64,000 nucleotides of DNA from an uncultured bacterium (GTDB taxonomy: Bacteria; Patescibacteriota; Saccharimonadia; UBA4664), in assembly GCA_963720265.1 (NCBI GenBank), contig CAVRET010000002.1, positions 456,704-520,703 of the forward strand, read 5' to 3'. Every line of letters starts with the position of its first letter. The first letter of the stretch is position 1. The position numbers and the translations under genes were made by a program. Below are positions 4,655 to 37,481 of the stretch, in pieces. The notes under the pieces are model-generated. The model was not told the DNA's origin. It saw only the letters and a list, made by a program, of their open reading frames with translations, and did no database searches.

Positions 4655-6034
4655 TCATGGGCTGTACAATTGCTCGCGCCAATTCAGCACTGCGTAGGTG
4701 CCCGTCGTGGGGTAGCACGACGGCGGCCCGTAGGTGAGGTTGGTGTCAAATGTATTCGAGTCGGTTTTGTAGCCATAAACAACATTGCCGTTACCGTCCA
4801 CCCAGCTCCAGGTCCAAAAGTTGTAACTGTCAAGTGAACCGTAAAAGGTCAGCGCATTCTTGGCCGATCCCGATTCCTCCGCCAGAATACTGCCGTTTTG
4901 AGCCAGCAGTGCACCGTCAATCTCGATCGTACTCGCGGCATAGGGCGCTACCTGTACGTTATTTTGCGCAATCAGGCCAATGACGTCCGAACCGTTTTTA
5001 GACGCATAAGTCAGGTTGCCGATAATGGTGATATTAGTATTGGTCGACGAATTCGCCGGAAGCACTCCGCTGATAATGTCGAGCCGCCCGGGCCAACTCG
5101 TCCCCTGCACCCATACGTTATCAGCGACGTATAAGATGCCGTCACTCGGCGCCGACAGTGTCGCGACTGGGTTCACAGTGGTTGTAGTGATGCCGGTTGA
5201 GTTCTCGCTCTTTACAATGTATTCGTTAATCTTCCCGTTACTGAGGAGTTGCAGGTAATAGCCGAGTTTACCACTCGAGTTGAGATAAACACCGCTTGAC
5301 TTGGCCTGGGTGCCGCACGAGCTATAGTCGGCCGTTACACCGGAGAACGGGACGCTCGGAACTGGAAATTGCCACTGCGACGACGGCCCGCCGTTGCCCC
5401 ACACGCCATTGTGCACCTTGCCGTCGCCGCCGAATTCGGCCGACGGTGTATACGTGGCATTGGCCGAGTACACCGGCCCGTTGTTGGTGCCGTCCATGTG
5501 TACGCCCACGTCGCTCATGACCGGCCCATTCGAACTCTCGGTTGAGCCAAACCACACTTCAGTGCCGGTCAGCAGCGCATAATTGGCAAAGCTCGGTTGC
5601 CCTAGCTGGGCCAAAATCGTCCGCGTGCCGGGAAAATTCGGCACCTCGCCGATCGATTTCACGGTCGTAATGGTTGAGCCGTTCGTCGGCGGCGTAATCC
5701 ATAGCGTGTAGGTCCCGAGGAACTTGCCGTTCACATCATAGTAATTGTGAGTATAAGGCCCGTACGGCGTCGTCGGCGGTATGTTCGCATTACCGTCTGT
5801 ATAGTCAGTGGAGTTATGCGCCAGATGCCAGAGGTAATAATTCACTCCGGCCTCGGCAATATTGAGTGCCTCGGCGCTGCGGCTCTCATAGAGCCCGAAC
5901 CGCTCATTTGAGGTCAACACCTGTGCTCCAATCACGCCCAGCGCCGATAAAATTACCGCCATCACGAGTACCGTCAGCATAATGAACCCGCTCTCGGCCG
6001 TCTGCGTCTTTCGGTATTGGCTGTCTCGCCCCAT
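4655..6034 (-). CDS. Giant PilX-like minor pilin or pilus-tip protein
   Basis: A hydrophobic N-terminal segment 'GFIMLTVLVMAVILSALGVIGA' lacking Glu5 (PilX_N-like) precedes a large, S/T/N/G-rich ~440-aa extracellular region. It sits within the pilus operon. Confidence 0.6.
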   Translation of the reverse strand: MGRDSQYRKTQTAESGFIMLTVLVMAVILSALGVIGAQVLTSNERFGLYESRSAEALNIAEAGVNYYLWHLAHNSTDYTDGNANIPPTTPYGPYTHNYYDVNGKFLGTYTLWITPPTNGSTITTVKSIGEVPNFPGTRTILAQLGQPSFANYALLTGTEVWFGSTESSNGPVMSDVGVHMDGTNNGPVYSANATYTPSAEFGGDGKVHNGVWGNGGPSSQWQFPVPSVPFSGVTADYSSCGTQAKSSGVYLNSSGKLGYYLQLLSNGKINEYIVKSENSTGITTTTVNPVATLSAPSDGILYVADNVWVQGTSWPGRLDIISGVLPANSSTNTNITIIGNLTYASKNGSDVIGLIAQNNVQVAPYAASTIEIDGALLAQNGSILAEESGSAKNALTFYGSLDSYNFWTWSWVDGNGNVVYGYKTDSNTFDTNLTYGPPSCYPTTGTYAVLNWREQLYSP

Positions 6035-6042
6035 GTGTATCC

Positions 6043-6642
6043 TCATAAGTTGGTCTTAAAGTTCCTCAAGGTCACCCGTGTCGCAATCGAAATCGGCACA
6101 TTGAGCCGGGTCGTGTTCGGATTGGCGGCCACGGTGATGCCGATCTGGTAAATCTGACCGGTCGAAAAACCGCTTGCGAGGGCATTGCCTGAACTGTCGT
6201 AATAGGTAAATATCGGTGTTGCGCCCATCGCCAAATCATCGCGCAGTACCGTATTCTTTTGGTTGGCCACGTTATAGGTGTAATTGGGCGCTGTCCCGGT
6301 AGGCGTTATCACCCCCACTTCAAAATTTTTACCGCTCACGAAGTAGCTAATTTCATCCACCACGCTGTCGGCCGGCGAAAAATAGCCGTAAATCGTCAGG
6401 GTATTGTTTTGCGCCGTCACCACACCGGTCGTGCCGCGTACCACTTTAGCAATCCGCTCCGATAGCGTCGAAAGTTCAATCGAGGTATTTGACTCATCCT
6501 GCAGGTATTGGTACGAGGCCATGCCCTGGAACGTAAAAGTGGCCAGGGGAATACTCAAAATCCCCACCAGCACCACTACCACGAGCAGCTCAATCAGTGT
6601 GTAGCCGCCTTGAGCCGCGGGGATGCTACGGGGTAACATCAA
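6043..6642 (-). CDS. Prepilin-type N-terminal cleavage/methylation domain protein (minor pilin)
   Basis: 'GGYTLIELLVVVVLVGILS' is a canonical G|(F/Y)TLIE prepilin motif. 199 aa. Confidence 0.75.
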   Translation of the reverse strand: MMLPRSIPAAQGGYTLIELLVVVVLVGILSIPLATFTFQGMASYQYLQDESNTSIELSTLSERIAKVVRGTTGVVTAQNNTLTIYGYFSPADSVVDEISYFVSGKNFEVGVITPTGTAPNYTYNVANQKNTVLRDDLAMGATPIFTYYDSSGNALASGFSTGQIYQIGITVAANPNTTRLNVPISIATRVTLRNFKTNL

Positions 6643-7975
6643 ACCCTCCGCTCTCAGTGGCTGTACCGGTGCTGTTGGTTACATCGACATCCCAGTTACC
6701 TGTAGCCGCACTCGTTAAATTAAGCGTGCATGTTAGCTGGGTACCCGTGCCGGTTACACCGGTGCAGGGAATCGCGGTCTGGCCGGTCATCGCCAGCTGC
6801 ACCGTGGCTGAGCTCAAATTTGTTCCATTAACAGTGAGCGTCTGGCTTGATGTGCCGGTCGAGCTGCTAGCCGGTGAAATGCTCGTGATCGTAGGCCAAT
6901 TGGCCGACGTGCTCACGACCAGGTTAACCGTCAACTGCGAATTCGGTTCTAGAGCGGCCGGTGCCACCGGAGAACTTGACACTACATAATGCCCAGCTGG
7001 TACCGAAAAGCTGTATGAATCCCACTCCATGCCAGACAAAGTGATGTTGCCGCTCGAGTCTGTTGCAGTGGCCTGCGAGTACTTATAGGCCGTTGGGTCG
7101 GTGTAAATTTGTTTCGCGCCAGTCGTAGTGACGCTCAAATTTGATATCGGATTACCGCTTGTGTCCGTTACATGGAGATACAGTGTTGATACCTGGTCAA
7201 TCGACAGCGACACAGGCGTAATTTGCTGCGCGATCACATTCGGGTTGAGCTCCACCGCCTTTTGTCCGCCGCCAGGATTTGGCTTCGTGCCGTCAGTCGA
7301 ATACCCTGGCAAGCTCGCAATCACCTGATAATTATTACCCGAATCCGGTGGCAGCTTCGGTATCACCACTACCCCGTCATTGTCCGTCGTGGTCTGAATA
7401 TTCACGGCCGGATTTTGGTTCGTATTTGTAATGCTTACATTGGCCTGCGGCACCGGCTGGCCGTTGGCATCAAGTACCGTGATGTCCAGAATCCCGGTGT
7501 CCGAAGCCGTTTCCGCTGCCTTGCCGGCAATATCAGTGGTAAGGGTCGCTACCAGCTGGCCGCTCGTTACGAGATACACGTCGACCTGAGCCCGCTTGTA
7601 ATCGTACGGATACAAATCCTTTGGTTTACCCGGAATCGTGCCGGCCGCATTACCGTCATACGGATCATCGATATACACAATTGTTGTGTGGACACGGAAT
7701 TTATAGTTGTCCTGGGTCTGCGTTTGGTTGTCAGCGATCGTGCCGGGTGGATAAATCGTACCGAATTGCGTCGCCAGCGAATCGTATGGCAGGTCGCGCA
7801 AGTACTCCATCTGCTGATTGGCCAGGCCCAAGCCGATCGCGCGGGCCTTGTCGAGCACCACTTCGTTCAAGTTTGACACAAACAAGCTGCCCACGGCCGC
7901 CACCATAAGCGTCATGATGACCGCGGCCACCACGATTTCGATCAACGTAAACCCAGCCTCGTCCCGGCCCTTCAT
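6626..7975 (-). CDS. Large prepilin-type protein with a C-terminal Ig/IPT-like domain (minor pilin or adhesin)
   Basis: 'GFTLIEIVVAAVIMTLMVAAVG' prepilin motif. 449 aa. The C-terminus has an IPT/TIG-like beta-sandwich pattern (PTITSISPASSSTGTSSQTLTVNGTNL...). Confidence 0.7.
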   Translation of the reverse strand: MKGRDEAGFTLIEIVVAAVIMTLMVAAVGSLFVSNLNEVVLDKARAIGLGLANQQMEYLRDLPYDSLATQFGTIYPPGTIADNQTQTQDNYKFRVHTTIVYIDDPYDGNAAGTIPGKPKDLYPYDYKRAQVDVYLVTSGQLVATLTTDIAGKAAETASDTGILDITVLDANGQPVPQANVSITNTNQNPAVNIQTTTDNDGVVVIPKLPPDSGNNYQVIASLPGYSTDGTKPNPGGGQKAVELNPNVIAQQITPVSLSIDQVSTLYLHVTDTSGNPISNLSVTTTGAKQIYTDPTAYKYSQATATDSSGNITLSGMEWDSYSFSVPAGHYVVSSSPVAPAALEPNSQLTVNLVVSTSANWPTITSISPASSSTGTSSQTLTVNGTNLSSATVQLAMTGQTAIPCTGVTGTGTQLTCTLNLTSAATGNWDVDVTNSTGTATESGGFDVTP

Positions 7976-24979: not shown

Positions 24980-25056
24980 TGGTACCCCCGGCAGGACTCG
25001 AACCTGCGACCATTGGCTTAGAAGTCCACTGCTCTATCCAGCTGAGCTACGGGGGC
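24980..25056 (-). tRNA. tRNA-Arg (anticodon TCT), CCA encoded
   Basis: Reverse complement gives GCCCCCG-TA-GCTCAGCTGGATAGAGC...CTTCTAA...GCAGGTTCGAGTCCTGC-CGGGGGT-A-CCA. Acceptor, D arm and T arm are perfect. The anticodon stem has only 3 of 5 pairs. Confidence 0.65.
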
Positions 25057-25081
25057 TCATGTCGTCATAATACAAAAATGG

Positions 25082-25152
25082 TGCGGGTGGAGGGAGTCGA
25101 ACCCTCGTAACCTGCTTGGAAGGCAGGCGCACTGCCGTTATGCTACACCCGC
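25082..25152 (-). tRNA. tRNA-Gly (anticodon TCC)
   Basis: GCGGGTG-TA-GCAT-AACGGCA-GTGC-G-CCTGC-CTTCCAA-GCAGG-TTAC-GAGGG-TTCGACT-CCCTC-CACCCGC-A. All stems pair. CCA is not encoded. Confidence 0.85.
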
Positions 25153-25259
25153 GCAGCAAGCACACCTACTATACCAGCGAGCGACCATAAGCACAAATAA
25201 ATCCCGGGCGCATGCTTCCCGGGATTTATCGCGGACTTGGACTTAAAACAACGAGCGGC

Positions 25260-25730
25260 CTACAGGCAGCCCTGGCTAACCCATTGGTTCCAATCATTCT
25301 GGCACCAATTCGAACTATAGCAACACCACTTGCCGTTGCTCCAATAGCCCATTTGGCTGTAGTTGTACCACTTGCCGTTGTACATCATGCCGCCATTGTT
25401 GCCGTAGTTGTTACCACTGTTCGCGTAGTAAATGCTACCGCCACCGTAGTTATTGTTGCCGTAGTTGCTACCACCGCCATTGCTGTAGTAAATGCTACCG
25501 CCACCGTAGTTATTGTTGTTGTAGTTGCCACCTTGGTTGCCATAGCTATTGCCATAGCGGTTGCTACTATTGTAGTTGCTGTACAACGCCGGCTTCTGGT
25601 TGTTGCAGTTGCAATTGTTGCCGCGGTTCATGTCGCCCGAATTGCCAGCCAGAGCGCTTGCTCCGCCGAGCGCCACGATCCCTGCTGCAACGGCCAAGCC
25701 GCCACCATACCTAATTAATAATGTTTTCAC
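25260..25730 (-). CDS. Secreted Gly/Asn/Tyr-rich low-complexity repeat protein with a Cys/Trp-rich C-terminus
   Basis: Signal peptide 'MKTLLIRYGGGLAVAAGIVALGGASALA'. Internal tandem repeat NYGGGSIYYxNxG(x)NYGNN, with a matching ~60-bp DNA repeat at about 25430-25530. The plus-strand ORF 25212..25718 is its antisense. Confidence 0.5.
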   Translation of the reverse strand: MKTLLIRYGGGLAVAAGIVALGGASALAGNSGDMNRGNNCNCNNQKPALYSNYNSSNRYGNSYGNQGGNYNNNNYGGGSIYYSNGGGSNYGNNNYGGGSIYYANSGNNYGNNGGMMYNGKWYNYSQMGYWSNGKWCCYSSNWCQNDWNQWVSQGCL

Positions 25731-25890
25731 GCACCCTCCTTATTGGATTTATTAGTTGTTACAACTGTTCAGAATAGCGCACTAACGGTATATAAGTACA
25801 AAAAAAGTTACAAAAATCCGGCACCAAATCGCTCAAAATTTGGGAATATTGTCAGTCACACGAAATGTCGGGTAAAATGAATTAGTCCTG

Positions 25891-25965
25891 GTCGGGGTGA
25901 AAGGACTCGAACCTTCGACCTCCTGCTCCCAAAGCAGGCGCGCTAGCCAACTGCGCCACACCCCG
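25891..25965 (-). tRNA. tRNA-Pro (anticodon TGG), CCA encoded
   Basis: CGGGGTG-TG-GCGC-AGTTGGCTA-GCGC-G-CCTGC-TTTGGGA-GCAGG-AGGTC-GAAGG-TTCGAGT-CCTTT-CACCCCG-A-CC(A). Confidence 0.85.
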
Positions 25966-26037
25966 ATAACCTTGCCATTATACTAGATTTTCAGGCTAGA
26001 ATACGGTAAAGTACCTAAGTTAAAAACCATTTCCCAT

Positions 26038-26115
26038 GGCGGGAGTAGCTCAGTTGGTTAGAGCGACGGGTTGTGGTCCCGTAGGTCGTGGGTTCGAGCC
26101 CCATCTCTCGCCCCA
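26038..26115 (+). tRNA. tRNA-His (anticodon GTG) with genomically encoded G-1 and CCA
   Basis: G(-1)-GCGGGAG-TA-GCTC-AGTTGGTTA-GAGC-G-ACGGG-TTGTGGT-CCCGT-AGGTC-GTGGG-TTCGAGC-CCCAT-CTCTCGC-C-CCA. The extra 5' G pairs with C73. Confidence 0.9.
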
Positions 26116-27687
26116 AGCATTCATTTTCTTCGCGTCTGCGATTGCAGAAAACGCACTGTTAAGCTCAAAAACCAACGTTGAGCCTTCCAGTTGGGTGTTC
26201 GAAAGTACGAACTGGATGAGCCGCCTCTTTGTGCTGACAGGAGTTCTCTCGTTCAGGAAAATCTCGCTGGCTCGGCTAGCGACTTCTAAGACCTTGGACG
26301 CGGATACCACAAAGCGCTCGTTGCCCTGGCTGTGGTCTTTTATTTGCTCTAGCACATCAGCTTGGCGCTGCGCCTTTTCGCCAATCAGCTCTTCGAACAA
26401 CTCAGGCTTAATCTTGAATTTTGAGCGGTCTCGAAACATATCTTTAATCTCTTCATCCAGGCGCTTGTATTCTTTCTGCAGCGAGTCCACTTGGCGCTTG
26501 TAGTAATCTTGCTCGCCGTTAAACTCTCTCTCCAGGTCTTCGACCAGCTTTGGCAGCATGTCTCCTGGTATTCTGAACGACTCCAGTATTGCTACTATCT
26601 GGGCGTTGATTACCTTCTCGTTCACCCACTTCGCCCCGTGTTTACCCCCGTACTCTGTGCACTTTAGGTAGTAGTTGCCACCGTTCTTCGGCCCGTCGGT
26701 CGATACAGTGTAGCCGCATGTTCCGCACCTGAGCATATCTTTGAACAGGTATTCTTTTCCCACCAACTTGGTTCTCTGCTTTGAGCGCTTCGCATCTACT
26801 GCTTTCACCTTTTGCCACATCCACGGGTCAATCAGCGGCTCGTATTTGTGAGGGTATTGTTTGCCCTCGTAAACCATCGTGCCAGAGTAAAACGGGTTCA
26901 TCAGGAAATGCTGGACCTGGGTTTTCGGAATCGGCTTCTTCTTAATACTGGAGACCATGCCCTTTTTTCGCAGCTCTTTGGTGATTGCACCATACGACAA
27001 CCCTGCGGCCCGCATCTCGAAAGCCTCTCTTACGAACTGCCTCTTCTCAGGGTCTGCCTCAATATCTTTGATTGGGTCTCCCTTGGTAGTGTAGCCAACG
27101 ATAATGTTCCGGTAGCCAATTGGCGCTTTCCCTGGCCACTCCTGGTCGGCCAGCTTTTGCTCAAATTTGCGGCGTACATTGTCTCTTATTGCGGAACTAT
27201 AATAACTGGCCAGTGCTACGCCAATGTCTAAGCGGAATAGGTCGGCTGCTGGCGAATCTTTGTGTACAAACAAATTGTCCGCTGGAAAATGAAGCTCAAT
27301 TTTCCCCGCCCGCATCAACTTTGTCATGATGCTCTTTTCTTCACTTGAGCTATCGCGAGTGTAGCGGTCAATTTTGTCGAAAGTGACTATGACTAGGCCT
27401 TCCGCCTGCTTGAGCGGCTGAAGCACCAGCTCGCTGAAGGTTTTCCTGGCCTTGCCGTAATATGCCGACTCATCAAATTCCGCGTACGCGTAACGTTCCG
27501 GTCTTTTCTCCACATATTCGACCAGCCGTTTGCGCTGTGCTGGCAGCGCCGGCCTTTGGCTGGCATCAGAGACCCGTGCCACAGCTAAGATAAAACTGTC
27601 GCCGGATTCTGCGAGACGTTCCACCTTCTCTGCTTTCTCGGGCATGAAGCTGTCGCCTTCAAACATCGCCATTGCCTGTGTTTTCAT
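26050..27687 (-). CDS. Large serine recombinase (integrase)
   Basis: 545 aa. N-terminal resolvase catalytic domain '...ILAVARVSDASQRPALPAQ' (catalytic Ser), a recombinase domain, a zinc ribbon 'CGTCGY...C', and a coiled coil. The C-terminal 22 codons overlap the tRNA-His 3' end. Confidence 0.9.
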   Translation of the reverse strand: MKTQAMAMFEGDSFMPEKAEKVERLAESGDSFILAVARVSDASQRPALPAQRKRLVEYVEKRPERYAYAEFDESAYYGKARKTFSELVLQPLKQAEGLVIVTFDKIDRYTRDSSSEEKSIMTKLMRAGKIELHFPADNLFVHKDSPAADLFRLDIGVALASYYSSAIRDNVRRKFEQKLADQEWPGKAPIGYRNIIVGYTTKGDPIKDIEADPEKRQFVREAFEMRAAGLSYGAITKELRKKGMVSSIKKKPIPKTQVQHFLMNPFYSGTMVYEGKQYPHKYEPLIDPWMWQKVKAVDAKRSKQRTKLVGKEYLFKDMLRCGTCGYTVSTDGPKNGGNYYLKCTEYGGKHGAKWVNEKVINAQIVAILESFRIPGDMLPKLVEDLEREFNGEQDYYKRQVDSLQKEYKRLDEEIKDMFRDRSKFKIKPELFEELIGEKAQRQADVLEQIKDHSQGNERFVVSASKVLEVASRASEIFLNERTPVSTKRRLIQFVLSNTQLEGSTLVFELNSAFSAIADAKKMNAWGERWGSNPRPTGPQPVALTN

Positions 27688-28136: not shown

Positions 28137-28529
28137 TTAGGGTGGTTTATTCGAGTCTTTTTCTAGCTCTTCAAAGGCTTTATCCATAAGTTCGTCCAGG
28201 TTCTCGATATCCTCATCGGTAGGGAGAATATCAGGAGTTTTCAGGGCCTCAACAGCTTCGAGTACAAGGCTCTCAATTTTCTTCCTCAGCACTGATTCTT
28301 TTGTCAGCTCAATCGGCTTGATGTAACCATTACCGCGCTTAAACGCCGGCATCTGGACCCACAAGTCCCCGTAGCGAGGCGAGCGGCGAACACTAATGCT
28401 GTTAATGAACAGCTCAATGTCCGGAAAGTTGACTTTAACGAGGTAATATTCAGCCTTGTCATCGCGGTAGTACACCTCTGCCGTAGCAAGGTCAAGGCTG
28501 AGGAAAATTTTAGTTGGCTGGTCGCTCAT
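28137..28529 (-). CDS. SpoVG-like protein (phage or plasmid-borne)
   Basis: 'VKVNFPDIELFINSISVRRSPRYGDLWVQMPAFKRGNGYIKPIEL' resembles the SpoVG core (hhhDIRVh..G.LFVAMPSKR..G...DIAHPI). Start uncertain. Confidence 0.4.
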   Translation of the reverse strand: MSDQPTKIFLSLDLATAEVYYRDDKAEYYLVKVNFPDIELFINSISVRRSPRYGDLWVQMPAFKRGNGYIKPIELTKESVLRKKIESLVLEAVEALKTPDILPTDEDIENLDELMDKAFEELEKDSNKPP

Positions 28530-28815
28530 TCGTACCATCCTCATGCTCATTTTTAACTTCAGAATGTTGCCCGCCGTACAGCCACGATTTCAACCTACGA
28601 GTTGCGTCGTGATACAGCCTGGGGTTCAATTCGATGCCGTCATCCCAATACAGTTCCACTACAGAGCGCAGTTCCGGCGAGTCCCAAAAAACAAAACCAA
28701 CCCGCCGCTGATTACTCCGGTCCAGGCCAATCGCTTTGAAGCCTTTGGCAGCCAGGACCGCAGCTAGCGGCAGGTCGGATGTAGTGAATTGTTTTTCAGC
28801 CAGTGCCATTCTCAT
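28510..28815 (-). CDS. DUF5659-like phage-associated protein
   Basis: 'FTTSDLPLAAVLAAKGFKAIGLDRSNQRRVGFVFWDSPEL' matches my recollection of DUF5659. Confidence 0.4.
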   Translation of the reverse strand: MRMALAEKQFTTSDLPLAAVLAAKGFKAIGLDRSNQRRVGFVFWDSPELRSVVELYWDDGIELNPRLYHDATRRLKSWLYGGQHSEVKNEHEDGTNERPAN

Positions 28816-29571: not shown

Positions 29572-29684
29572 TTTCATCTCCATCCTCATCTGGGCATATT
29601 CTCTCACGCCTGGTTGCCAACAGGGGTATCCGGAAGAATTCCTAGTCAATTCACGGCTTGCGGTTTACCTGTCAAAATAAAAAT

Positions 29685-30134
29685 ATGGGGGAGAAGTCAA
29701 CAAAAGTCGGCCGGCCAGCCGCGATAACAACGGCTTGTGTCCAAAAACTGGAACAGGCGTTTCGTGAGGGTTCGGACACGGCAACGGCCTGCCATCTATC
29801 TGGAATTTCGCGGTCTACATACTACCAACGTCTTGCCGACGACTCCGAGTTTTCGGACAAAATGCGGCTTGCGCAAGAGTGGCCAACTGCACTCGCAAGA
29901 AAAACGGTTGTCAGCGAAATTAACAAAGGCAACTTTACTGCCGCGCGCTGGTGGCTTGAGCGCAAGGCATCTGCCGAATTTGGCCAAACTCCGGCTACAG
30001 GTAAGCATCCCGAACCGGCTATCAACCTAACTCAGGCTCAGTGGGATGCAATGCAGCAAGCTTCAGAAGCTGCAATTCGGTTACTGCAGGGTGAGCCGGA
30101 CACAGGCTCGGGGGCTGGCAATCTCGTTGACTGA
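29685..30134 (+). CDS. HTH DNA-binding protein resembling a phage terminase small subunit
   Basis: 'VGRPAAITTACVQKLEQAFREGSDTATACHLSGISRSTYYQRLADDSEFSDKMRLAQE' is a typical TerS-like N-terminal HTH. Confidence 0.5.
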   Translation: MGEKSTKVGRPAAITTACVQKLEQAFREGSDTATACHLSGISRSTYYQRLADDSEFSDKMRLAQEWPTALARKTVVSEINKGNFTAARWWLERKASAEFGQTPATGKHPEPAINLTQAQWDAMQQASEAAIRLLQGEPDTGSGAGNLVD

Positions 30135-30870: not shown

Positions 30871-31965
30871 CTAGGCCTCCACTTTCCCCTCCAGGCCCTG
30901 GAAGCGCATCGCCCGCCTGAACCCTAATTTTTCCGCCTCTGCGACTGTTGAACAATATTTTTCGCCCAGCCTAGGCTTAATTTTTACTCGGTCATATTGC
31001 TGGTCAAACGGAAGGTGATAAATCTTCTCGCCAGTTGCCGGAGCAATATTGCACTTAATGCAGGCATACGGCTGGGGCAGCTTCTCCTGCTCCTTCATTT
31101 CAATCCCAAGTTCGTTGCCGAACCGCCGCGCCAGGTCCGAGACATTGGTTGTTGTGTAGAAGAGAGCACGCACATTCTCGGACCTGTGCTCATCGCGGTA
31201 TTTAAAAACGGTGCCGAAAAACTGAAAAATGTGCTTTTCGTGGAGTAATTTGAACCTTGACCAGTTCTTACATTGAACTACGACAGTCTCTTGGCCCTTC
31301 TTGGCTATCAGGTCACGCCCCAAGTCTTGGCGGCCCTTAATTATGCCCTCATAGCTCACGTCGTACCCCTGCTGCTCGTACACCGACCCAACGTAACGCT
31401 CGTACATTATGCCGATGTGCCATTTTGACTTACGCTTCTTCCAATAGTTATCCAATGCCACCTGGTTGCGCTCACTTGGGGAGAGCGTCTCGTACTGCTC
31501 TTTTGAGAGAAATAATGCGGCATTGTCTTTGGCCTCATCAACCTCAGGCGGCTCATCCGCTTCAACCAAATAACCCTCATCCGCACCAGTGCCATCAAAG
31601 TCCTCTCGTAGCTCGGCCAGCTCTGGCATGAGGGTTTCGTAGTCCTCAACCAGGTAGCGGTACATTCTGCGCTCGGCATCAGCTTCGCGCCGTTGCTTGG
31701 CTATCACCTGCAGTATGTCGCTGGCTTTTGGCGCAGGGTGGGCCTTGTATTTCAGCAGGTCAACGAGCTGCTTGTCCTGCAGTGCCAGATACTCTTCATA
31801 CGCCTTTGCCAGTGTCGGATACCCCTTGGCGTACTCATTCGCCATCTGAGCAATCTCGCGCCTCTGCTGGGCCAGTCTGGGGTAAGTGGCATCAATAAAC
31901 TTTTGTGCCTTTTCGTAGTCGGCCATGAGGCGGCGGAGTTGGTTTAAGAGCTGCTGTGGGTCCAC
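30871..31965 (-). CDS. Coiled-coil protein with an Mrr-type restriction-endonuclease catalytic domain (Mrr_cat) and a C-terminal Zn-finger
   Basis: 'WHIGIMYERYVGSVYEQQGYDVSYEGIIKGRQDLGRDLIAKKGQETVVVQCKNW' is the PD-(D/E)xK Mrr_cat pattern (D...D/E..QCK). C-terminal 'CIKCN...'. GTG start overlapping the stop of the upstream gene by 1 nt (TAGTG). Confidence 0.65.
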   Translation of the reverse strand: MDPQQLLNQLRRLMADYEKAQKFIDATYPRLAQQRREIAQMANEYAKGYPTLAKAYEEYLALQDKQLVDLLKYKAHPAPKASDILQVIAKQRREADAERRMYRYLVEDYETLMPELAELREDFDGTGADEGYLVEADEPPEVDEAKDNAALFLSKEQYETLSPSERNQVALDNYWKKRKSKWHIGIMYERYVGSVYEQQGYDVSYEGIIKGRQDLGRDLIAKKGQETVVVQCKNWSRFKLLHEKHIFQFFGTVFKYRDEHRSENVRALFYTTTNVSDLARRFGNELGIEMKEQEKLPQPYACIKCNIAPATGEKIYHLPFDQQYDRVKIKPRLGEKYCSTVAEAEKLGFRRAMRFQGLEGKVEA

Positions 31966-32519: not shown

Positions 32520-33266
32520 TTACCAGGTGATTACGCTCACCCCCATCTCCTTTAGTTTCTTTTCTTCTTCGGCACTGAGGCCCAGCTCTCGGTTCTCCAT
32601 GTCAAAGCCGTAAGTAATGCCATAAATATTGTGCTTGAAAAAGAATGATTGCCGGCCATTGAGTTGCCTGGGCAAGCCTGAAAATTCGCATTTGTTCTCA
32701 GGGGTCCCAGGCACCACTACCCAGAAACCCTTAAAGTCCCGTACACCCATAATGATTTGGCGTGCTTCATCAAAGCGCGGCTGCAATACATATTCTGCCC
32801 CACGGTCCAGGCACATGAACTCATATGCAATTTTGTAAAGTGCCCTGGCGAAGTTCTTCGCATAATTGGTGGTCATTTTGTCGCCTCGAAGGTGAAGCCT
32901 AAAGTTTACCGACCCGTCAGGTTGCCTAGGCCCTTCTTCGTAATGTTTCGGCGTTGTTTTCGCCATCTCCATGTAAAGACCGCTGCGGTCCGGCTTAACC
33001 TGCATATTTAGGTTGGTCATTCGAACCTCAGGCATCTTACCTTCTTTGTTGGGAACCATAAAATAGGTCCGAAGGTAGGCAATAATCTTGTCTTTCACCA
33101 AAATGGAATCCAGGCCAGCCAGAACCGTATTGTTGCAGTTGTCGCAAACCGTACCCCGTGGCAGCACGTATTTGGTGTTACCAAGGCTCTCTGGCACAAT
33201 ATGCTCTTCCGATGTGAAGCTTCCGTGTTTGGTGAGGCAAAAAACGCACTGCATACCCCCGACCAT
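32520..33266 (-). CDS. HNH endonuclease domain protein with an uncharacterised C-terminal domain
   Basis: 'CVFCLTKHGSFTSEEHIVPESLGN...TVCDNCNN' is a classic HNH (CxxC...H...N...CxxC). Start set at the internal Met; the upstream ORF extension is low-complexity. Confidence 0.7.
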   Translation of the reverse strand: MVGGMQCVFCLTKHGSFTSEEHIVPESLGNTKYVLPRGTVCDNCNNTVLAGLDSILVKDKIIAYLRTYFMVPNKEGKMPEVRMTNLNMQVKPDRSGLYMEMAKTTPKHYEEGPRQPDGSVNFRLHLRGDKMTTNYAKNFARALYKIAYEFMCLDRGAEYVLQPRFDEARQIIMGVRDFKGFWVVVPGTPENKCEFSGLPRQLNGRQSFFFKHNIYGITYGFDMENRELGLSAEEEKKLKEMGVSVITW

Positions 33267-33326
33267 AATGTAATTCGTGGCAAATCTGCAATAAGATAGG
33301 GCTACGTTTGAAAGTTTTAGGGAGAA

Positions 33327-34187
33327 ATGCCGAGAATTAATCCGAAAAAAAGCGATAAACAGGCTGAGTTGGAGAAAGAACTCGATGCGCTGATTGAAAG
33401 CGGGGCTTCCAAGATTGATGGGTATAAGCTGCCCGCTGGAAAGCAAAATCGAAAAACACTTTTTACTCTCGCCACATATGCTGCGGTCAGTGACAGGGCC
33501 GAGGGGATTCTTCTTATGGCGCAAAATTACAAGCCCGACCCAGCTTTTATTATTTTGCGGTCAGCTCAAGAGGGCTATCTTAACCTATGCTACGTTCTAC
33601 AAACCGATAATGATGCGAGACTGCTGGCAATGTTCCATTCTTTGGCAGAGCAGGACGTTCGCCGAGTGAGGTTGCTAGATACGTACCTAAAAACACTAAC
33701 GACCAAATCGGGCGTGCCTGAAGGTCTAAGCAGTGATGCTCACGACGCAATTGCTCGCCTTGAAAAACAGCGCGACCAGGCCCAGCAAGAATTAGCGAAG
33801 CTCGAAGACTCTGAGTTTGCGGCCAAGAGCCTCCCTGACCTTGTCGAGCGCTTACGGCGCTATGATGCAGGGAGTAAAGCCGAGGGCAATGACACTCACC
33901 TGGAGCTGGATTATCGCATGATTTATTTTTTTCTATCTCAGCACACTCACCTTGGGCTTTCGGCTCTAGCGAATAATCTTGGTGAAACCGGCGAGACTGT
34001 TGATTTGAACCCAAAAGACCCTGTCTCCGATTGCGAAATTGTGCTCCACTCCGCATATGCAATTTTAGGCGACACTTTAATGCTGACACTGGCACAAATT
34101 GGCGCTTCAACTGATGGCGTGCTTGAGCAGATGAAGGAAGTTGCCAAGAGACTAAAGCCTGATACAAAAAGTAGCGCTAGCTCATGA
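33327..34187 (+). CDS. Hypothetical protein, first gene of a translationally coupled pair (lower-GC block)
   Basis: 286 aa. The stop overlaps the next start (ATGA). Helical, with no motif confidently recognised. Confidence 0.6.
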   Translation: MPRINPKKSDKQAELEKELDALIESGASKIDGYKLPAGKQNRKTLFTLATYAAVSDRAEGILLMAQNYKPDPAFIILRSAQEGYLNLCYVLQTDNDARLLAMFHSLAEQDVRRVRLLDTYLKTLTTKSGVPEGLSSDAHDAIARLEKQRDQAQQELAKLEDSEFAAKSLPDLVERLRRYDAGSKAEGNDTHLELDYRMIYFFLSQHTHLGLSALANNLGETGETVDLNPKDPVSDCEIVLHSAYAILGDTLMLTLAQIGASTDGVLEQMKEVAKRLKPDTKSSASS

Positions 34188-35152
34188 AGCGTTCAGCCTC
34201 GCAGAAGGTCCAGCTCATTACTAAGTCGCGTGAGGCAACTCTGGCTGCCGTTCAGCTATTCAATAATCCTCTAGCCAGTTTCAAAACAGAGTCCTTCATC
34301 GTTCTCAGTATGATTGCCTGGACTTACATGCTGCACGCGTACTATCGCGCAAAGGGCGTCGAGAACCGCTACTTTGAGCAAGGCCCAGTGCGAAGACGCT
34401 TTGTTCGCAACTCAGACAATAGTTACCGATATTGGGACTTAACAGAGTGCATAAAATCGGAACACTGCCCTCTTGACAGCAACACATCCAACAACCTGCT
34501 GTTCCTTATCGGACTACGCAACCAAATAGAGCACAACAGGCCCGAGGGTTTGGACTCTTACTTGTCTGCTCGCTACCAGGCGTGTATGTTGAACTTCAAT
34601 TTTTACATTAAGAAGCTGCACGGTGAAAAATATGGTCTAGATGACAACCTTACGCTCAGTCTGCAATTCGGCGAGCTTACCTACAACCAAGCGAATGTCA
34701 TAAAAAATAAGGAGAAGCTTATACCTGCCGGCATCAATTCATACATTGCCAGCTTTGACAGCAAATTAAGTGAAAACGAACGCAATAATGAGCGCTATGC
34801 GTACAGGTTGCTGTTTACCAAAACTTCAGCCAAACGCGAAGGTCAAGCTGACAGGGTTGTCGAGTTCCTTGACCCGAATTCCGAGCTAGCTAAGAACATT
34901 GATAAAGAGTATTGGGTAAAAGAGGAAAGAGAAAAGCCCAAATTTCGCCCAACTGACGTGGTCAGGGAAGTCCAAAAAGCAGGCTTCAGAGCGTTCAACA
35001 TCACAAAACACACAGATATGTGGAAGGCCCATGACGCAAAGAGTCTGGCAAAGGGGTACGGCGTTGAAGTGGCAAAGACTTGGTATTGGTACCAAAATTG
35101 GGTGGACTTGGTAATTCAGGAGTTATCCGAGGCGGGCAGAACTCAAATTTGA
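34184..35152 (+). CDS. DUF3644-like protein (a family I recall from abortive-infection and defence-island contexts)
   Basis: 'REATLAAVQLFNNPLASFKTESFIVLSMIAWTYMLHAYYRAKGVE...RYWDLTECI' matches my recollection of the DUF3644 N-terminal signature. 322 aa. Confidence 0.5.
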   Translation: MKRSASQKVQLITKSREATLAAVQLFNNPLASFKTESFIVLSMIAWTYMLHAYYRAKGVENRYFEQGPVRRRFVRNSDNSYRYWDLTECIKSEHCPLDSNTSNNLLFLIGLRNQIEHNRPEGLDSYLSARYQACMLNFNFYIKKLHGEKYGLDDNLTLSLQFGELTYNQANVIKNKEKLIPAGINSYIASFDSKLSENERNNERYAYRLLFTKTSAKREGQADRVVEFLDPNSELAKNIDKEYWVKEEREKPKFRPTDVVREVQKAGFRAFNITKHTDMWKAHDAKSLAKGYGVEVAKTWYWYQNWVDLVIQELSEAGRTQI

Positions 35153-35340
35153 CTATGACAGCACAGTTTTAAACCGAATATCGGCTCCAGGAAGCCGTTA
35201 TTTTGTTGTTTACATCTTTAACCCGTATAGGGCTTCGAACACCAGAATAAGTTCTTTTCGAGCCGAAGGCGAAAGCACACTCTTGAGAGGGGTTATTTCA
35301 AAGTTTTTAACAACAGATAGGGAAAGATTACAATAACGTC

Positions 35341-36132
35341 ATGAAATTACCCATCATGGCCAATGTAACCTTTAAAACTCCTCACGGCTTATTGCAGCTT
35401 CAAGGCGCACCGGATATAGGCCACTTTAACCAGCGATTGAAGGCCTATTTTGAAGATGAATTCAAGAATCCAGACGCGCTGTCCTCTTACTCAAATTTTC
35501 AAAAGATTTTAAACAAAAAGGCAAAAGAGGTATCTCATTTAAGGATTTACGATTTTGAAGCTGAACAAAGGGTAGGCGAGTTAGTGGTTGTATCTGCAAT
35601 AGCAGCTACGTTAAACCACATTCACGGCATGGCACTTATACCAGGATGGCAGAGGTCAGGGCAGCAAGTGATCATGGAGCAAGAGTTCGGCAAAAAGAGC
35701 TGGGATGGATTTGTGTATGAGACCCCTACGGATGGTACCGATAAGGCTTTTCCAAATTTCGTAGAGGTAAAATCAACTATGGTAAACCCAAGTGAAGACG
35801 TAATGAGCCCGAATGAATTGATGAACAGCAGACTCGAACAGTACAGAAAACACTTTCAATCTTCTGACACAATCTGTGCAATATTCATCATGCCCTATAC
35901 TGCCCCTGGAGAGCGGCTTCGATTCGACCTTAAAGACGCTACGGAAAAACTTAACAATGTGGTTGCGGATGGCGCTATGGGTAGTATCTGTCTGCTCAGC
36001 TTTCCGACCAATGAGAGCGGACAGACGGTAATGACCATTCATTGCTATCTAGTAAACAAAAACCCAAAGCTTGGTAAGAATGGAAAAATTGATAACGTCA
36101 GTTTAGGAAAACTTGAGTTAGCGGACTTTTAA
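35341..36132 (+). CDS. hypothetical protein (AT-rich gene)
   Basis: 263 aa. Clean ORF. No family recognised. Confidence 0.55.
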   Translation: MKLPIMANVTFKTPHGLLQLQGAPDIGHFNQRLKAYFEDEFKNPDALSSYSNFQKILNKKAKEVSHLRIYDFEAEQRVGELVVVSAIAATLNHIHGMALIPGWQRSGQQVIMEQEFGKKSWDGFVYETPTDGTDKAFPNFVEVKSTMVNPSEDVMSPNELMNSRLEQYRKHFQSSDTICAIFIMPYTAPGERLRFDLKDATEKLNNVVADGAMGSICLLSFPTNESGQTVMTIHCYLVNKNPKLGKNGKIDNVSLGKLELADF

Positions 36133-36245: not shown

Positions 36246-36350
36246 AAGAACTTATGCTTAAAAAGGTGTTAACTCGCCTTTTTTGTTGCCAAAAGCAAGG
36301 ACGCCCTGGTTGGGCGTCCCGCTAATGCAGGAGCCCAACCAGGGCGTAGT

Positions 36351-37481
36351 TCAGGCGGCCTCGAGGACGAGGTTCGCCAGTTCGGACAGGTCGTGCCGGT
36401 TGCCCTGCCGCCAGCCGAGGTGGTAGGCCTCGTAGACCGGCGGGTCGTTCGGCCGGCCCAGGGTGTTGGGCACAGCGACCCGGTCGCTGGCAACGATCGC
36501 GCCCTCGTAACCGTAGAAGTACTTCAGCGCGCCGGGCAGGCCCAGGGCGAGGTCTTCGGGCGACGAGCACTGGTCGTTGTTGCAGCAGGGCAACGGCTGG
36601 CCAAGCACCACCACCGAGGTGTCGGGGTGCTGCTGGTACAACTCGATCGCCGCGTCCGAGTTCAGCGCCGGCAGGAGCTGGATGGTCGGCAGGTCGGGGA
36701 AGGCGGCCAGGATGGCTGTCTGCCACACTGGGTCCGCCTCGGCCACGATGACCTTGGTGACGTTCACCCAGGCCCGGTCGGGCTCGACCTGCACGAAACC
36801 GAGCAGGTCGCGGAGGTACTCCTCGAGCAAGCCGCCCTTGAAGGGCTGCCCGTCGAATTCGTCCTCCACCGGCCCTCGCAACGCCTTGAGCAGTCGCCGC
36901 CGCAGGCCCCGGATGAGGCCGTAGTGCGCCAGCAGCTCGTAGACGGCGGTGTTGTAAAGCCGGTGGTTCTTGTGGTACCACTTCAGGCTCGGCACGCGGC
37001 CGTAGAGGTCCTCGTCCATGTCGCACGTGCAGTTGCCGTCCCGGTCGGGGGCGAGGCCGCTGGCGAAGGCGTTGTGGACCTCGGAGGGCCGACGGGTCGC
37101 GGCGAACTTCTCGAACGTCGCCAGCCAGCCCAGCACTTCCGTGAGGGCCTCCTGCTCGCGCAGAAGATCGATCATCCGGTAGAGATACCACGCGCCGCCG
37201 CTGGGGTCCTCGGGCCGAGGCTTGAGCTGACGTACAGCGAGTGCCGCCTTGACGTCGCCCTGCTCCCTGGCGGCCTTGAATGCACGGGCGTGCTCTTTGG
37301 CCTCCTCGGTCCAGGGGTACTGGTCATCGAACGGCAGGGGCTCAGTGTTGATCGCCAGCGTCAGGCTGATGCTGTAGCGCCGCATCACCCTCCGCAGCAT
37401 GGCGAGCATCCGGTCGACGGACGCGAGCCGGCGCCGCATGTGATCGAGCGTCGGGGTGGACGTGACGAGGGTCTCGCTCAT
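36351..37481 (-). CDS. Hypothetical protein, strongly GC-rich single-gene cassette between repeats A and B
   Basis: 376 aa with normal composition. The overlapping ORFs in other frames (36393..37487 +, 36322..37191 -) are R/G/V/P-rich artefacts of high GC. Confidence 0.55.
   Translation of the reverse strand: MSETLVTSTPTLDHMRRRLASVDRMLAMLRRVMRRYSISLTLAINTEPLPFDDQYPWTEEAKEHARAFKAAREQGDVKAALAVRQLKPRPEDPSGGAWYLYRMIDLLREQEALTEVLGWLATFEKFAATRRPSEVHNAFASGLAPDRDGNCTCDMDEDLYGRVPSLKWYHKNHRLYNTAVYELLAHYGLIRGLRRRLLKALRGPVEDEFDGQPFKGGLLEEYLRDLLGFVQVEPDRAWVNVTKVIVAEADPVWQTAILAAFPDLPTIQLLPALNSDAAIELYQQHPDTSVVVLGQPLPCCNNDQCSSPEDLALGLPGALKYFYGYEGAIVASDRVAVPNTLGRPNDPPVYEAYHLGWRQGNRHDLSELANLVLEAA

Follow-up and report, generated by a model that had tools for sequence, protein, structure and literature searches.

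Results

The DNA analyzed here is a 64,000-nucleotide window from an uncultured bacterium of the Saccharimonadia (contig CAVRET010000002.1), to which all coordinates below refer unless a locus is named. Our subject is a 2.8-kb module of three plus-strand genes within it. Gene 1 (33327-34187) encodes a predicted all-alpha protein of 286 amino acids (aa) from the family DUF5677 (PF18928). Gene 2 (34184-35152) encodes a 322-aa HEPN protein of the EC042_2821/DUF3644 family, identified with the phage defense candidate PDC-S19 of the PADLOC database, and gene 3 (35341-36132) encodes a 263-aa protein whose rare family bears a PD-(D/E)xK-type signature. A first-pass annotation, made by reading the nucleotides without database searches, had placed three open reading frames (ORFs) of these lengths at these positions, and independent gene calling on an identical public contig returned the same three calls. 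We take genes 1 to 3 to be more than chance ORFs because all three products are conserved proteins. A 334-aa ORF with a TTG start that overlaps gene 1 was discarded as an artifact of the ORF-listing rule. Neither an Rfam match nor a meaningful tandem repeat was found within 32.4-36.6 kb, so the module contains no noncoding RNA or repeat element.

The true start of the neighboring HNH gene lies at 33266 on the minus strand (MVGGMQCVFC…), so that it and gene 1 diverge from the two sides of a 60-bp intergenic region (33267-33326), in the orientation first proposed. A GGGAGA sequence resembling a Shine-Dalgarno (SD) site stands just 5' of the gene 1 ATG. Genes 1 and 2 share a 4-nt ATGA at 34184-34187 on the plus strand (...AGC TCA TGA / ATG AAG...), a stop/start overlap with the geometry of translational coupling that the first-pass annotation had reported correctly. 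Inspection of the sequence upstream of the gene 2 start gave no obvious SD, and a consensus scan gave no terminator between the two genes. Genes 2 and 3 are separated by a terminator-like hairpin with a T-run 3' of gene 2 (35182-35207, plus strand) and by a promoter-like site immediately 5' of gene 3 (TTAACA-16-TACAAT, 10/12; 35307-35334, plus strand). The promoter-like site comes from a consensus scan only, and the hairpin from such a scan and the sequence itself.

Gene 2 carries the peptide AVQLFNNP...FKTESFIVLSMIAWTYMLHAYY, from which DUF3644 had been proposed at first reading, and the proposal was right. Its product matches Pfam DUF3644 (PF12358) with an E-value of 1.5e-51 and 175 bits (cut-off 27.6), over profile positions 1-182 of 183. 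The presumed link of this family to defense agrees with its listing as a phage defense candidate: residues 3-317 match the 325-position PADLOC model PDLC04948 (PDC-S19) end to end (E 4.9e-128); six other PDC-S19 models also match. The homologs detected number 1791, and the best of them, 60-68% identical over the full length, come from bacteria of the candidate phyla radiation (CPR), Proteobacteria, Chloroflexi, Planctomycetes and archaea. An alignment of 28 diverse homologs contains 118 invariant columns, among them R112, N113, E116 and H117 of the HEPN Rx4-6H catalytic motif, R112-N-Q-I-E-H117 (codons at 34517-34534, plus strand). These four residues hold in homologs from CPR bacteria, Proteobacteria, Chloroflexi and archaea alike. 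The HEPN domain spans residues ~10-194 and is followed by a C-terminal domain at residues ~200-322 (34781-35149, plus strand). In the AlphaFold2 (AF2) model, the helical N-terminal domain has a predicted local distance difference test score (pLDDT) of ~90, and residues 206-251 are modeled poorly. Foldseek searches of the PDB with this model gave sensible partial matches to HEPN proteins only, namely AF_0298 (2hsb; template modeling [TM] score 0.69) and HepT/SO_3166 (~0.58), with both scores normalized to the target and all matches at E>1.

The C-terminal ~125 residues of the gene 2 product are conserved as much as the HEPN part, with the pattern YRLLFxK...AKRxGQADRVxEF...EKxK...WxWY, and residues 195-322 are free of cysteine. 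A Pfam search at E<=0.1 gave no match to PF18740, the EC042_2821 domain resembling restriction endonucleases (REases). Distant relatives of gene 2 in Streptococcus satellites have both DUF3644 and PF18740, and when the gene 2 family was compared with these proteins using hhalign, the two were collinear over residues 10-319 (probability 98.6%, E 1e-15). The C-terminus of gene 2 alone, aligned with satellite proteins whose C-terminus matches PF18740, gave E 2e-4 and a probability of 45% over 99 columns. Because of this collinearity and the C-terminal profile match, gene 2 is probably of the EC042_2821 type over its full length, with a divergent C-terminal domain that probably retains an REase fold.

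Gene 1, first described as an unknown partner of gene 2, proved to be assignable. Residues 49-221 match Pfam DUF5677 with an E-value of 4e-16 and 60 bits (cut-off 27.1). It falls in a small subfamily, with four relatives at 49-65% identity among 5.8 billion proteins, to which a profile search added none; searches of the PDB, of plasmids and of viral contigs likewise gave no hits. The blocks LRSxQEGYLNL and DYRxIYxxLSQxTHL are conserved. An AF2 model built from five sequences is all-helical and weak (pLDDT 55.6), and its Foldseek matches were set aside as meaningless. We considered whether gene 1 is a cryptic HEPN protein and rejected this, hhalign comparison with three HEPN profiles or proteins having given probabilities of <=0.2%. 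Nor does its product match a nucleotidyltransferase of the MNT type or resemble known antitoxins, and gene 3 is likewise without such a match. The end of the gene 1 product, …DTKSSASS, is unconserved among the relatives and simply runs to the first stop, which lies inside the start of gene 2.

One relative of gene 1 lies beside a large serine recombinase. Another has Fic and a 975-aa RelA/SpoT protein as its neighbors and a large serine recombinase at a distance of 5 kb; the remaining two lie between transposases and between two genes without Pfam matches. DUF5677 genes have been found to be enriched beside serine recombinases, and a DUF5677 ORF assayed for phage defense did not confer it (RADS study, PMC12632615). 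Gene 1 resembles this RADS cargo in sharing its island with a large serine recombinase, as do two of its four relatives in having such recombinases nearby, and differs in belonging to a small divergent subfamily. Gene 1 is most likely an independent cargo gene associated with recombinases, which in this locus only is coupled to and co-transcribed with gene 2. As a separate observation, the locus with the RelA/SpoT gene (L084:6587-11776) is a compact island of toxin/defense type, in which the DUF5677 gene is flanked by Fic and by the RelA_SpoT-domain gene in convergent orientation.

The first-pass annotation had treated the ATGA-coupled genes as a candidate system and had suggested looking for their co-occurrence elsewhere, a comparison in which the proposal failed. 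Roughly 90 loci with gene 2 homologs were examined in all. Relatives of gene 1 or gene 3 were sought within 6 kb using phmmer and family hidden Markov models at E<=10, and were present at none of 80 genome loci, whose gene 2 homologs are 46-68% identical. The same was true beside gene 2 homologs in three viral contigs (0/3), beside DUF3644 in two annotated plasmids and one satellite, and, judged by precomputed Pfam neighbors, beside four of the closest gene 2 homologs. Conversely, a DUF3644 gene adjoined the gene 1 relative at none of six loci.

What does surround the gene 2 homologs is varied, with about one third of them standing among restriction-modification (R-M) genes. The upstream neighbor was HsdS at 14 of 76 loci, an N6_N4 methyltransferase at nine and a LexA-like repressor at seven. 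Downstream, HsdR was the only recurrent family (8 of 73), and large serine recombinases occurred at three. Among the 70 loci at which both neighbors were visible, 25 homologs were solo and 24 lay <=20 bp from a same-strand neighbor, often with overlaps of -4 or -8, a tight coupling that agrees with the nomination of PDC-S19 by 'guilt-by-embedding'. Members of this family thus habitually couple to whichever gene precedes them, and the ATGA overlap is therefore weak evidence for a specific partnership; the unconserved gene 1 tail with its stop inside the gene 2 start is a further reason to weigh the overlap lightly.

Could genes 1 and 2 nevertheless form a genuine two-component system, with the DUF5677 protein gating the HEPN RNase as its sensor, inhibitor or antitoxin? 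In that case it would do for gene 2 what the type I R-M complex does for R-M-embedded relatives, following a logic like that of PrrC/EcoprrI. The junction itself speaks for such a pair, with its 4-nt overlap, a gene 2 lacking an SD and no intervening terminator. HEPN toxins commonly need a partner, HEPN-MNT pairs and PrrC being examples, and the many gene 2 homologs that are embedded in and tightly coupled to R-M genes would fit a family that generally relies on a neighbor. However, the pairing was seen at this locus only, the 25 solo homologs indicate that the family needs no dedicated partner, gene 1 is without similarity to MNT or any known antitoxin, and a variable tail that runs to the first stop within the next gene is what compaction predicts. 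We consider a two-component system unlikely. The more specific case of a HEPN-MNT toxin-antitoxin pair was ruled out, there being no adjacent MNT antitoxin.

Two further observations concern what lies upstream of gene 2 homologs. At seven loci (L003, L005-L007, L014 and other CPR loci), the LexA-like repressor combines Peptidase_S24 and LexA_DNA_bind, a hint that in some lineages the HEPN gene may be under control of the SOS or prophage type. In one lineage (L004:2247-5990 and L118:253-3999), the DUF3644 gene begins 1 bp after a gene for a 1248-aa DEAD/ResIII helicase with HA domains, another tightly coupled upstream partner that is neither R-M nor DUF5677.

Gene 3, called an orphan at first, has a small family of its own. 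It had no match in Pfam, PADLOC, NCBIfam, PHROG or, by sequence, the PDB, and its family comprises 23 representatives in 1.84 billion proteins. D122-G123 and E142-x-K144-S145 do not vary among 19 of these, even where identity drops to 18%. The D...ExK spacing is 19 residues (translated from 35704-35775), and the motif …SWDGFVYE…NFVEVKST… reads as a putative beta-hairpin. On these grounds, and given the terminator-like and promoter-like sites that precede it, gene 3 is a candidate for a separately transcribed, standalone nuclease of the PD-(D/E)xK type. The neighbors at 18 loci of its relatives are varied and defense-flavored, including methyltransferases, Eco57I, Shedu SduA, nSTAND, HNH, AAA_21 and recombinases.

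These loci also bear on whether the functional pair is instead gene 2 with gene 3, a HEPN RNase working alongside a PD-(D/E)xK DNase. At locus L088, on an 845-kb metagenome contig, the closest relative of gene 3 (5995-6789; 70-73% identity) lies 24 bp 3' of a gene for a different HEPN protein, of 187 aa and the classical kind (PF05168; 5408-5968); these may form a local two-gene unit, although the association is not general. Ymh (HEPN) genes occur within two genes of gene 3 relatives at two other loci, a DUF3644 gene lies 5 kb from another relative (L094), and one gene 2 homolog (L117) is followed by a PDDEXK_13 nuclease gene. Set against these cases, gene 3 relatives were absent from all 80 gene 2 loci, the two genes are separated here by the terminator-like and promoter-like sites, and the L117 nuclease was examined as a possible gene 3 relative and found to be unrelated. 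A habitual pairing of gene 3 with HEPN genes was also ruled out, since the genes upstream of its relatives differ from locus to locus (Ltp, DUF2779, Shedu, HNH and unknowns). A partnership of gene 2 with gene 3 is extremely unlikely.

The module occupies one end of a low-GC island of ~10 kb, which has a large serine recombinase at its other end and a composition that contrasts with its flanks. As had been judged by eye, the most AT-rich stretch of the window is here: the 1-kb bin at 35001-36000 has the lowest GC content of the whole window (0.436), and the lowest 400-nt bin is 35200-35599 (0.393). Gene 3, in this lowest-GC part of the window, has a GC of 0.427, followed within the module by gene 2 (0.466) and the less extreme gene 1 (0.485). 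GC at third codon positions (GC3) is 0.45-0.64 for island genes vs 0.76-0.92 for flanking genes on both sides. The right edge of the island is sharp, near 36.3 kb (36280-36350), and the next gene (36351-37481, minus strand) has a GC3 of 0.92.

The recombinase (26050-27687, minus strand; 545 aa) has Resolvase, Recombinase and Zn_ribbon_recom domains and abuts tRNA-His (26039-26115). A gene for a 158-aa protein resembling a terminase small subunit (terS) lies at 29658-30134 on the plus strand (phrog_4102, E 3e-17), and an Mrr/Zn-ribbon/HNH operon lies between it and the module. No convincing att-type direct repeats were found bounding the island, and att sites were not identified; long att repeats are not expected for serine recombinases. 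The 2.8-kb stretch can fairly be read as cargo at one end of an integrative island of ~10 kb, which may be satellite-like. The proposal that it belongs to a defense hotspot on an integrative element is thus a reasonable one, given the recombinase, the tRNA, the low GC and the other nuclease genes nearby.

Several features of the island were noted in passing. Besides the terS-like gene and the recombinase, it carries a DUF5659 gene (28510-28815, minus strand) and is without capsid or tail genes, so that it may be a phage satellite (PICI/PICMI-like) carrying defense cargo. The 3' end of the recombinase ORF on the minus strand overlaps tRNA-His on the plus strand by ~66 nt, and a public Logan contig matching the island breaks within tRNA-His, its base 1 corresponding to window position ~26086; the overlap and the break may point to the attachment site. 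Four tRNA genes (Arg-TCT, Gly-TCC, Pro-TGG and His-GTG) span 24980-26115, and GC is already lowered from ~24.0 kb. Within this stretch, an opposite-strand ORF pair (25212-25718) contains tandem-like direct repeats of 57-60 nt (families D1 and D2; 94-96% identical) and has a repeat-rich product. The Mrr_cat nuclease protein (30871-31965, minus strand), which heads the three-gene operon with a Zn-ribbon protein and an HNH_5 protein, also matches the NCBIfam 'sunset' domain at its C-terminus, just under the cut-off (E 6e-5).

Discussion

We regard it as reasonably probable that this locus holds three unrelated single-gene cassettes of defense type, stacked on an integrative island without forming a conserved system, and that gene 2 is a monogenic HEPN RNase. 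Under this explanation, the N-terminal HEPN domains of two gene 2 proteins would dimerize to create a composite Rx4-6H RNase site. The C-terminal REase-fold-like domain would bind nucleic acid or otherwise sense an invader, and would hold the RNase latent until then. Upon entry of a phage or plasmid, gene 2 would cut RNA, leading either to growth arrest (abortive infection, Abi) or to loss of the invading replicon.

Among the closest known systems is PDC-S19 itself, a single-gene phage defense candidate (Payne et al., bioRxiv 10.1101/2024.01.29.577857). Gene 2 matches its main model from end to end, and the R-M embedding of many homologs is as expected for a family nominated by 'guilt-by-embedding'. 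It differs in its setting, following a DUF5677 gene on a recombinase island rather than lying inside R-M, BREX or DISARM. DUF3644 has been described as the HEPN family 'EC042_2821', which occurs in R-M operons and is fused to a novel C-terminal domain with an REase fold (Anantharaman et al. 2013, PMC3710099). Gene 2 shares with that family a HEPN domain with Rx4-6H, the same length, a collinear alignment and the R-M association of its homologs, whereas its C-terminal domain falls below the PF18740 threshold, is matched at the level of profile against profile only, and lacks the winged helix-turn-helix or Zn-ribbon additions.

HEC-08 is a DUF3644 protein in which mutation of the motif histidine abolishes phage defense; for it, too, a model match to the HEPN toxin SO_3166 was reported. 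Gene 2 shares with it the N-terminal HEPN family and the catalytic histidine. Identity with HEC-08 was ruled out, however, as the C-terminal domain of gene 2 has no cysteines or zinc-finger features. Ishtar (ist1/ist2) is a monogenic HEPN anti-plasmid immunity that acts alone and clears plasmid RP4 (bioRxiv 10.64898/2026.07.06.735840). Like Ishtar, which has DUF4145 or DUF3644, gene 2 is a single polypeptide with an N-terminal HEPN domain and an uncharacterized C-terminal domain, and both occur in a setting of mobile elements and defense neighborhoods. Ishtar homologs are ~170-260 aa long vs 322 aa for gene 2, and the invariant motifs of gene 2 are absent from the Ishtar homologs of Table S3, which rules out that gene 2 is an Ishtar protein. 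In agreement, an hhalign comparison of gene 2 with a profile from a sample of 12 listed Ishtar homologs aligned the catalytic helix only (28 columns, probability 20%).

The nesting of the HEPN RNase gene between hsd genes in many gene 2 homologs recalls PrrC/EcoprrI and makes for a plausible model of latency and activation. In the PrrC precedent, the RNase, an anticodon nuclease, is kept latent inside a type I R-M operon. PrrC differs in having an ABC-ATPase N-terminal domain and in belonging to another HEPN family, and gene 2 has no R-M genes in this window.

The same comparisons raise the question of whom these genes serve. Gene 2 might act for the mobile element, and genes 1 and 3 might do likewise, in maintenance of the island or a plasmid or in competition between elements, for example by addiction-like stabilization or by exclusion of rival plasmids or satellites. 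DUF3644 relatives are present on 25 plasmids, beside ParA/ParB or integrase genes, and in Streptococcus satellites of ~10-13 kb, between cI and integrase. The clearance of RP4 by Ishtar proteins points the same way, as do the serine recombinases beside DUF5677 relatives and the combination, for DUF5677 at large, of enrichment near such recombinases with a negative phage test. On the other hand, many homologs are chromosomal and sit in R-M operons without mobile-element genes nearby, and the DUF3644 protein HEC-08 protects against phage. A role for the element thus seems to us improbable as the main explanation, and it is not exclusive of host immunity.

Several points weigh against the explanation we favor, that of three independent cassettes with gene 2 as a monogenic defense RNase. 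First, a gene 2 start that lacks an SD and overlaps gene 1 by ATGA is what a functional operon would be expected to show, and with one such locus known, a real partnership of recent origin is possible. The pairing test, moreover, reached the gene 1 subfamily and the Pfam families of immediate neighbors; a very divergent DUF5677 gene two or more genes away could escape it. Second, gene 1 may not be a defense gene at all, if the negative result for a DUF5677 ORF elsewhere extends to it. Third, for gene 2 itself, the Foldseek matches to HEPN structures were not statistically significant, the C-terminal domain is poorly modeled with its putative REase assignment resting on a modest profile match, and for PDC-S19 no experiment was found in the literature searched.

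Conclusions

All three ORFs of the module are now assigned, and gene 2 is tied to a catalogued defense candidate and to a known family of HEPN RNases. Gene 2 is a clean, intact PDC-S19 member on a mobile island. Gene 3 defines a rare, unnamed family with a clear nuclease signature, which recurs in neighborhoods of defense type. It is quite improbable, at the bolder end, that the HEPN RNase has acquired the DUF5677 protein as its dedicated gatekeeper in a new two-gene Abi or anti-plasmid system, with gene 3 founding a family of standalone PD-(D/E)xK defense nucleases. If true, this would give DUF5677 its first function, and the gatekeeper would replace the type I R-M complex encoded beside many gene 2 relatives. 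For the DUF3644 family to which gene 2 belongs, tight ATGA coupling alone is a poor sign of a functional system, as its members regularly nest behind unrelated genes.

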